From IMG/VR virus record IMGVR_UViG_2541047874_000003: DNA of 54,334 bases; one strand, 5' to 3'. Positions within the stretch are counted from its first letter, which is position 1. Each line of letters starts with the position of its first letter. Shown here piece after piece: positions 51,001 through 54,000 of the stretch. A program made the position numbers. This DNA is from a virus (lineage: Duplodnaviria > Heunggongvirae > Uroviricota > Caudoviricetes).

Positions 51001-54000
51001 GAGGAACCTCCATTATCGCTTGTTTTTTCTCTGTTTGAAGGGATTAAAATAGCAGACTCACACTCCCTTTGGTTAAAAGAAAGACTATGTATATCCTTAC
51101 TTGCCATGTTCAAAAAACGCGAAAGTGTAAATTCATTTATACTAACAAATATAAATACATTTACCTGTAAAATTACTGGAATAATCAGTTTTAATATTGA
51201 GCGGCAATGGCATTTAAAAGATATTGCGGAATTGATTTATACGAGTGAAAGTTTAATAAAAAAAAGATTAAGGGATGAAGGAACGTCATTTACTGAAATA
51301 TTGAGAGATACTAGGATGAGGTATGCAAAAAAACTCATAACTTCAAACTCTTATTCTATCAATGTCGTAGCCCAGAAATGTGGCTATAACAGTACTTCAT
51401 ATTTCATATGTGCATTTAAAGATTATTATGGTGTCACGCCATCTCATTATTTTGAGAAAATAATCGGCGTCACAGATGGAATAAACAAAACAATTGACTG
51501 ATAATATTTATTACAAGTTGTCTACATGTTAATTATAATATTATACAGCGTGTTTTTTGATGTGATATTCTGGAACCATTAATTTGTAATTGGGTTGCTG
51601 TCGCCTATTTTATACACACTATAATTGATGGTTTTCTATGTGATTTAGTTAATAACCTTCTGGGTTTATTTTAAGGGTTAATTGTTACATTGAAATGGCT
51701 AGTTATTCCCCGGGGCGATTTTCACCTCGGGGAAATTTTAGTTGGCGTTCTTAAAATGTGTACTTAAGACCAGCAGTAGTGATGAAGTTATAGTTTTCTA
51801 TGCCTGCTCCATTTTTGCTGTAGTCTGAAGTGTTATTATTGTGATCATAAAGTGAAGTATTACCTTTTTTATTCGTAACCCGATTCCATGCGCCTTCAAC
51901 ATAAACTTTTGCGTTAGGTGTGACGTAATAACCTGCATTGACTGCAACAGAATAGTAATTTTGGTCTTTGACCTTACTGCGATAAGTGATTCTTTTTCCC
52001 GGGTCATAGTGTTCATCGTTATCAGATGATTCCACCCAGCCGCTGTATTTAAATGTGCCACCTAGCTCAAAATCTTCATAACGATAACTTCCAGTCAAGC
52101 CAATGTAGGGCATTTTAAAACGTTGTTTGTAGCCGATTGCTCTTTCTCCATTCGGGAAGGAGCCGATATCATCTCTGAATCCCTCCTCAGAACTGTAGAT
52201 ATAGGAACCACCTCTGGCTGTAAAGCTATAACGGCTTTCCTGATATCCGGCCATGAGTCCCAGGCGGTAATTGGGTTCGTTGAGGAGCCAGCCTTTGATA
52301 TTCAGATCAAATTCGTTGGCATAATTGAGTTGTGTATCAGGATGTCTACTTTCATCCGTCCAGGTTCCGGGGTTACTGGAATCCATCCAGTCCTGATCGA
52401 CCATATTGCCACCTCGGCTGCCGAGTGTTGTCCAGCCAGCAGCCCCGATAGATATCTGAGGCATCAAATCCCAATTAATTGCACCTTTAATAATTGCAGC
52501 GTTATTGAATTTCCAGTCAAGTTGACTGACTTTTCGGCTTCCTTCTTCGGCTAGATAAACACGCTCTTTTGTTTTTCCGCTCAGAGTTCCAAGACTAATG
52601 TCCGCATTTATGTTGTCAGGAGTAAACGATAAAGTCTCGGTAGAAGCAAAAGAGTTGATCGCAATAGGGGTTGTCAGGACTATTCCCAGAAGTTTCGCCC
52701 GCATAAAAGTTCTCCATTCAATCGTTTTAATGATTGAATATGTATTTTTTATATCTAACTTAATGGGTCAATTACATATTGCTCCACTGTTTATATTTTG
52801 TTTAGTATTGAATGATTATCACAATGCGCTATCTGTTTTTGGTTTAATTATCTGTTATTGTTTCATATTGCGGTTTTACTGTGTGGTTTTTTTATGATTT
52901 TGTGGTGCTTTTATCTATTTAAGTGCCATGCCTTTAGAGGCATATAAGCGAAAATAGCATGAGGTTTATCCTCAATTACTATGTTTTTTAGTACAAAAAA
53001 GAGGGACAAAACTGAGACACATAAGGCCTCACAAAGGTCTGCAAGGCCTCACATGTATTGAGATGTTAATAAAATGTAGGCTTGTAATTTTGATATAAAT
53101 GGTAGATAAAACCTTTCCCCAAAATAAAAACGAACGTCAATGAAATCAAACGGTTGAATAAAGTTGATTTTGGCTAATAAAAAGACAATAAAATAATTTT
53201 TATCATTAAATATCAATGAATTGAACTTAATGTTTTTATATACTGCTGCGCCATATGGGCTGGACTGAAGCGGCTGACCTGATTGTTAAAGGTATGGAAG
53301 GCGCAATCAACGCGAAGACCGTAACTATGACTTCGAACGTCTGATGGAAGGCGCTAAGCTGCTGAAATGCAGCGAGTTTGGTGATGCGATCATCAAGAAT
53401 ATGTAATCACTACAAGTGTTAAATATTATAACGGGCGTATAACACGCCCGTTTTTTTTGTTAGCTTGCTAAGGGTTATCAAAACCCCCTGATAGTTTGGT
53501 GGGGCAGATAGCAGTTCTACTCATTGTGGCGATGCTTTTTTCTCCGGCCGAACCGTGGCTGATGCCATGTAGCTCAAGTACCTGACAGCGTAATACGGCA
53601 CATCTGCCGTCTGGTTTTCCAGAACGGTTTTTCCAGTATTTGTAGCTACTGCGATGAACCCCGAACACGTGGTAGAGAGTGACCACAGGATAACGCGCCC
53701 TGAGTTTCCCGATTATCGAGAACTGTTCAAGGGAGCCGCATCAAGAGCACGGTAGCCTTTTTAAATATTTCGTTTTCCATTTCAATTCGTTGTCGCTTTT
53801 TCTTTAGCTCACTTTTTCCCGTATCTGTGATAAGTTAAGCGCAATGATAGACTTTTTATGTCTGTGTTAGGGTATTAATACAAACCCGCAGATATACGGT
53901 TTTTTGCTTCGGTAATTCACAGGTAAATCCGAAAAGATCTTCGCCAGCGGACTGCCGGAGATGAAATGTTATGTTCAGCAATTTCGGAAAACTGACTTGT

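Follow-up and report, generated by a model that had tools for sequence, protein, structure and literature searches.

Why does a 3′-terminal piece of icd, the gene for isocitrate dehydrogenase, lie close to the right end of a viral record without the body of the gene in front of it? The record in question (IMG/VR IMGVR_UViG_2541047874_000003) is 54,334 nt long and this whole stretch, referred to below as the window, was analysed here. We are nearly certain that positions 53244–53458 represent attR, i.e. the right-hand junction of a ~53.5-kb lambda-like prophage located inside icd. As such, the feature is of an already known kind, namely the ordinary, textbook scar of a lambda-like virus inserted in icd. 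The underlying design, in which an integrating element replaces the end of the gene, has been described for e14 and phage 21 from 1989 onwards.

The right end of the window is organized as follows:

52996–53243, no strand assigned: P arm of attR, non-coding and AT-rich, contiguous with a phage icd 3′ end and int in free phages (96–97 % identity).
53115–53124, plus strand: TTCCCCAAAA, a candidate arm-type integrase binding site and the sole copy in the 54-kb window.
53244–53259, plus strand: 16-bp identity block TGCTGCGCCATATGGG, common to attL, attR and attP, with which the duplicated segment begins.
53244–53407, plus strand: icd′ pseudogene (the icdC equivalent), i.e. codons 363–416 and the stop codon without the gene body and with a 1-nt deletion, placed by alignments.
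53324–53325, plus strand: site of the 1-nt deletion, where one C of a CC pair is gone and the frame shifts at Tyr391.
53430–53458, plus strand: native intrinsic terminator of icd (9-bp stem, 5-nt loop, T8).
53459–54334, no strand assigned: chromosomal (B′) flank, collinear with the DNA directly 3′ of intact icd in Escherichia ruysiae.
53522–53818, minus strand: truncated IS911-like transposase remnant, ~90 % identical to IS911.
54041–54334, minus strand: 97-aa orphan gene in the chromosomal flank.

For the comparison of attachment sites, attL was taken from the source genome, attR from the window, attP from free phages such as Escherichia phage 3W and 4A7, and an unoccupied attB from E. ruysiae. 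The source scaffold (accession numbers GCA_000459855.1 and KE701379.1) matches the window with 0 mismatches over an overlap of 27 kb, made up of 16,878 and 10,294 nt: the left-end source locus covers window positions 1–16,878 and reaches 3,872 nt further left, and the right-end source locus covers the final 10,294 nt of the window.

Based on these alignments, 53244–53407 is a 163-nt copy of the terminal 164 nt of icd, with homology beginning at 53244, the first base of TGCTGCGCCATATGGG, and ending with the TAA stop codon at 53405–53407; a BLAST comparison with the K-12 icdC gave 91 % identity over 218 nt (E = 2.6e-84). A sequence-only reading of the window had recognized the C-terminus of isocitrate dehydrogenase at a prophage/chromosome junction, as a ‘~150-bp’ segment within 53253–53458 that carried a 1-nt deletion, lacked an upstream gene body and was followed by a strong terminator. 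A 1-nt gap is indeed the only one in the alignment of the fragment to icd 3′ ends, and the end at 53458 was exact; the segment is real but 163 nt long, and it starts at 53244 instead of 53253. The icd body is absent upstream, where 52996–53243 consists of AT-rich non-coding phage DNA. The terminator, too, was correctly described: a G+C-rich 9-bp stem at 53430–53452 is followed by T8 up to 53458 (dG −19 kcal/mol, z = −3.8 versus shuffles), and a near-identical hairpin with one stem mismatch lies downstream of the intact icd of E. ruysiae. A scan of 52600–54334 against Rfam gave just one sub-threshold match, which fell on this terminator. We also considered whether the icd′ fragment might be expressed and judged that it is not, because promoter-like sites upstream of it are no commoner than in shuffled sequences and a 29-aa ORF at 53255 shows, by eye, no ribosome-binding site.

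As a side observation, the source genome harbours two such terminator hairpins, i.e. the one at 53430–53452 and one in attL, ~60 bp left of position 1, which have identical stems and a flipped central loop: reverse-complementing the hairpin behind the displaced end, AACGGGCGTATAACACGCCCGTT, gives exactly the one behind the phage-supplied icd end, AACGGGCGTGTTATACGCCCGTT. The flipped loop looks like a hairpin-templated inversion.

The single gap in the icd-end alignments, which was obtained in multiple alignments with six and with ten icd ends, corresponds to the loss of one C. The window reads GTAA-CTATGAC where all nine comparison copies read GTAAC[C/T]TATGAC, so that translation of the fragment yields 28 residues in one frame and then, after the lost C, 25 in the +2 frame; after correction of the frame, its 54 aa are those of the functional end at attL. 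The deletion was present in none of the nine comparison copies, an exact 26-mer spanning it had no match among viral or metagenome contigs, and the closest allele to the window copy among 5426 complete Escherichia coli genomes reached 95.4 % identity. The deletion is private to this leftover copy, a small twist on an otherwise ordinary textbook feature. Its rarity also feeds the likeliest of the alternative explanations, i.e. that the base was lost in sequencing or assembly and the fragment is in truth an in-frame, icdC-like copy: the window derives from a single draft assembly, the deletion was found nowhere else, and the other attR fragments examined (five of five) are in frame. Against this, the affected site is a CC dinucleotide and not a long homopolymer, a copy without selection is expected to gain such lesions, and the recovered contig is reported for two samples. 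We consider an error unlikely.

The two icd ends of the source genome, at attL and attR, differ by 12 substitutions in 10 codons in addition to the deletion. All 12 are synonymous, including a TCA/AGC serine switch, and the same 54 residues are encoded; therefore, both copies have a history as functional ends of the gene, and the base was lost late, from a copy that selection no longer maintained. The window allele itself is a mosaic, with 5–6 differences from the attR copies of E. coli O170, 1105 and PAR, seven from the attP of phage 3W, 12 from its own attL, and 17 of 164 sites differing from the attB of E. ruysiae despite the common flank. Consequently, the description of this copy as the ‘displaced original end’ in the sequence-only reading stands as far as displacement is concerned, whereas ‘original’ holds merely in the sense of the end present at integration; judged by its allele, it is doubtful that it was the original end of the lineage.

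The DNA to the right of the terminator is chromosomal. The unoccupied site of E. ruysiae aligns with the window at 90.7 % identity over 53244–54230, E. ruysiae is also the sole species-representative genome with an exact 24-mer located just right of the terminator, and the chromosomal genes further downstream are pdeG to minCDE. Complete E. coli genomes gave no match to the right flank beyond the IS911-like part. Because the collinear E. ruysiae alignment spans the position of the IS911 remnant, the latter is older than the split of these lineages; several short-read assemblies break at this remnant (53522–53818). The host flanks show ~96 % identity to E. coli (96.5 % to strain GmM066 and 95.3 % to K-12) and 95.8 % to E. 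ruysiae, unlike the int end of the prophage, which is 99.9 % identical to E. coli prophages. The host may represent a divergent Escherichia lineage that recently gained the phage.

The same flank bears on a second alternative, according to which an older e14-like element decayed and left its attL behind, in the form of the fragment and the flank, so that the phage entered an icd gene that already had a phage-supplied end and the displaced copy would not be the native chromosomal one. The first ~25 bp after the terminator (53459–53483, GTTAGCTTGCTAAGGGTTA...) resemble the K-12 sequence that follows the e14-supplied icd end and not the one that follows icdC, i.e. similarity to the former continues to 53483 and similarity to icdC ends at the terminator. 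Moreover, the flank continues with an IS911 remnant and an orphan gene, and the mosaic allele shows 5–7 differences from phage and other attR alleles. On the other hand, the next 10 kb contain no second icd′ fragment or other e14 homology, and the same flank follows the intact icd of E. ruysiae, so e14 may simply have captured the gene end of a chromosome with a flank of the window type. We regard an older e14-like remnant as improbable; in any case, it would alter the earlier history of the displaced end alone and not the present feature.

If the fragment is attR of an icd prophage, the opposite end of the element should adjoin an intact icd. Two genes mark this end of the window:

1–1143, minus strand: lambda-type tyrosine integrase of 380 aa, the leftmost prophage gene (Pfam Arm-DNA-bind_1 and Phage_integrase).
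1133–1369, minus strand: excisionase of 78 aa, overlapping the start of int (an ORF, with an annotated excisionase at the matching position in GmM066 and phage 3W).

As had been predicted from the window, the source genome carries an intact icd of 416 codons with a phage-type 3′ end immediately to the left: the gene stops 113 bp left of window position 1, beside the stop codon of the integrase, and attL occupies 113–277 bp left of the window. Its terminal 164 nt match the phage allele, differing at two sites from the attL of GmM066 and at five from the attP of phage 3W. In all ten places read, as well as in E. coli GmM066 and the source genome, a 416-aa icd is found at a distance of 113 bp from an identical integrase protein. 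The integrase is 99–100 % identical to those of icd-integrating Bievrevirus-type phages (99.2–99.7 % to phages 3W, 1H12 and ev207, and 99.5 % to 3W), 60 % to IntE of e14 and 35 % to lambda Int.

The reconstructed phage site leads to the same conclusion. A predicted attP, built from the window DNA left of the junction, the attL icd end and int, is contiguous in the free phages 3W, 4A7, 1W, Lambda_4C10, ev017, 1H12 and others at 96–97 % identity, and in some free phages a 50-aa ‘isocitrate dehydrogenase’ is annotated beside the integrase. In the four-way alignment, attB consists of the icd body, core, icd end and chromosomal flank; attL of the icd body, core, phage icd end and P′ arm; attP of the P arm, core, phage icd end and P′ arm; and attR, i.e. 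the window, of the P arm, core, icd′ and the chromosomal flank found in attB. The phage-supplied replacement end and the displaced pseudogene proposed earlier are thus both seen directly, and a duplication of icd without a phage was rejected by the same alignment. In all four sites, homology breaks at 53244, 164 nt before the end of the stop codon; to the left the sequence is contiguous in attP-bearing phages and to the right it is contiguous with the E. ruysiae attB, which puts the right boundary, previously estimated at about 53250, at 53244. That the fragment is instead the phage's own icd copy, in attP or as cargo, with the true boundary further right, is very improbable: a terminal icd segment is present in related phages, and in the 3′ third of the fragment (GATGCG...AAGAATATGTAATCACTACA) the window allele agrees with that of phage 3W, but the icd end in attP and attL is followed by TTCCCCAAAAC repeats and int, the window fragment leads into the E. 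ruysiae post-icd flank and then pdeG to minCDE, and the phage-type copy of this prophage is already accounted for at attL.

The alignment of both icd 3′ ends, which had been suggested as a way to find the crossover core, places the first mismatch between attL and attR at 53260, and strand exchange probably took place inside the preceding TGCTGCGCCATATGGG block. Just the first 9 bp (53244–53252) are common to all four att sites, because the attB of E. ruysiae reads GTCAC and the others GCCAT. Published e14 haplotypes are already switched after excision at the earliest polymorphism, which is 11 nt into the repeat (PMC13626634), in line with a crossover at its 5′ edge. The P arm begins to match free phage genomes at 52995/52996 and is common to the attR of E. 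coli strains 582, PAR, O170 and 1105. By analogy with lambda, copies of TTCCCCAAAA are candidate arm-type integrase sites: the 113-bp spacer between icd and int in attL contains three tandem TTCCCCAAAA(C) repeats in the same orientation as the copy at 53115, with 0.15 expected by chance. Since matches to further TTCCCCAAAAC copies with mismatches were fewer than expected by chance, the exact copy at 53115 alone is reported here.

Taken as a mechanism, the attR reading would run as follows. The attP of the phage holds its own copy of the terminal 164 nt of icd and the terminator, and the lambda-type tyrosine integrase would swap strands at the 5′ edge of the icd homology, within TGCTGCGCCATATGGG. 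After integration, the icd body reads into the phage-supplied end (attL), and the prior end of the gene is pushed ~53.5 kb away, without promoter or gene body but retaining the native icd terminator and the chromosomal flank. This displaced copy, free of selection, would then have lost one base. Nothing contradicts this model. The anatomy of the junction, the intact icd at attL, attP in free phages and the empty attB were observed directly, and the precise crossover position, the role of the arm sites and the succession of events are inferred. That excision and integration would regenerate attB and attP is indirectly supported by the occurrence of attP in isolated phages and of attB in an unoccupied genome.

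Four hallmarks of the phage 21/e14 design are found here, i.e. an integration point within icd, ~165 nt short of its 3′ terminus, a phage-derived functional end that keeps icd intact at attL, a displaced icd 3′ fragment at attR beside chromosomal DNA, and a tyrosine integrase and excisionase encoded beside attL. The design is covered by reviews (PMC6379469, PMC10111431) and by PMC12803456. The closest described counterpart of the window fragment is icdC (b4519) of K-12, at the right end of the cryptic prophage e14, with the same 164/165-nt duplicated icd 3′ segment. Both copies begin at the same icd nucleotide (ATG/TGCTGCGCC) and lie at attR, with the icd terminator and chromosomal DNA behind them, and in both elements the functional icd reads into the element-supplied end (PMC6379469, PMC13626634). 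They differ in that K-12 icdC is in frame and its terminator is followed by iraM and subsequent genes, unlike the flank in the window. Furthermore, e14 measures 15 kb, carries ymfD, ymfE and lit between icd and intE and has a pinE-mcrA right end, whereas the ~53.5-kb lambda-like prophage has int directly beside icd and appY-ompT at its right end. With an integrase 60 % identical to IntE, arm sequence left of the core unrelated to the e14 arms, and appY-ompT in place of pinE-mcrA, the possibility that the element is e14 itself was rejected. The earlier assignment to phage 21/e14-type integration is thus right for the design and wrong if taken to mean e14, and the link to phage 21 is a literature label of the integration site, the ‘phage 21 attachment site’ (PMC12803456).

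The nearest relatives of the int/att module are instead the icd-integrating phages 3W, 4A7, 1W, ev017 and 1H12 (genus Bievrevirus), with integrases 99.2–99.7 % identical to that of the window, the same int and xis layout, and 96–97 % identity across the junction from the P arm through the icd 3′ end and terminator to the P′ arm. For this module, the prophage belongs to the Bievrevirus type represented by 3W and 4A7 (Int at least 99.5 % identical to the integrases of 3W and 4A7, with 99.5 % for 3W, and attP 97 % identical to 3W across the junction). Published relatives at the icd site are the prophage NC-SV of strain NC101 and ‘50icd’. The resemblance to lambda itself is one of architecture, i.e. 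an Int with an N-terminal arm-binding domain, xis overlapping int, int beside attL, and three P′-arm tandem repeats which, together with the P-arm copies, recall the lambda sites P′1–P′3 and P1/P2. Lambda Int is, however, just 35 % identical and the 15-bp lambda core lies in intergenic DNA; unlike lambda, phages of the window type carry a 164-nt replacement gene end in attP, because their target is inside a protein-coding gene. Such junctions are common: the icd 3′ segment occurs 7335 times in 5426 complete E. coli genomes, ~1900 above one per genome, and 1679 of these genomes encode this integrase. In RefSeq, the fragments are routinely annotated by the NCBI pipeline as partial isocitrate/isopropylmalate dehydrogenase.

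The cargo just inside attR consists of appY and ompT (50752–52704), as in E. coli strain 582, whereas sitABCD fills the same slot beside an alike P arm in phage 3W and in several E. coli prophages, i.e. those of strains PAR, O170 and 1105. The swap point of the cargo lies near 52996–53003, beside two AAGGCCTCACA direct repeats (53023–53053) which form a long hairpin within 52996–53062. Between the genes for a cI-like repressor and kil, an overlapping pair on the minus strand (5305–6878) encodes a HipA_2-domain protein of 249 aa (6129–6878) and a DUF3037 protein of 275–280 aa. By exact look-up, this pair is rare (2–3 contigs), and the 280-aa DUF3037 ORF also occurs in another genome, with the phage there at the lambda att site. 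The pair may represent a toxin–antitoxin or defence-type accessory module. Unlike the icd-integrating phages, the window prophage also harbours insertion sequences: an IS256-family transposase (15432–16640) beside the Q antiterminator gene, and an IS3-family element (48906–50179) between the tail-fibre genes and appY. With two IS insertions, the prophage may therefore be defective.

What the deletion would mean for the host can be read from the protein that excision would leave behind. In E. coli isocitrate dehydrogenase, helix alpha12 (residues 390–397) contributes to the NADP pocket, with Tyr391 and Arg395 as NADP-binding residues (PMC8623467). If the icd body is fused at the core with the copy in the window, a 395-aa protein with the frame shifted at Tyr391 is predicted, and this fusion would be without helix alpha12, Tyr391, Arg395 and the last 26 residues. 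Provided that the deletion is real and the crossover occurs 5′ of 53325, cured cells would probably be without isocitrate dehydrogenase activity, and restoring a good icd would, if this is true, need a rare homologous crossover downstream of 53325.

Regardless of the deletion, the right boundary is now fixed to the nucleotide (53244) and the integration site confirmed, which aids annotation of the prophage and its appY-ompT cargo. We give an even chance to the further proposal that the deletion turned a reversible integration into a dependency, in which the prophage-supplied end would be the sole working icd end of the host and loss of the prophage would be selected against. A genuine deletion would show how a displaced gene end, decaying neutrally, can leave the host reliant on the end supplied by a prophage.
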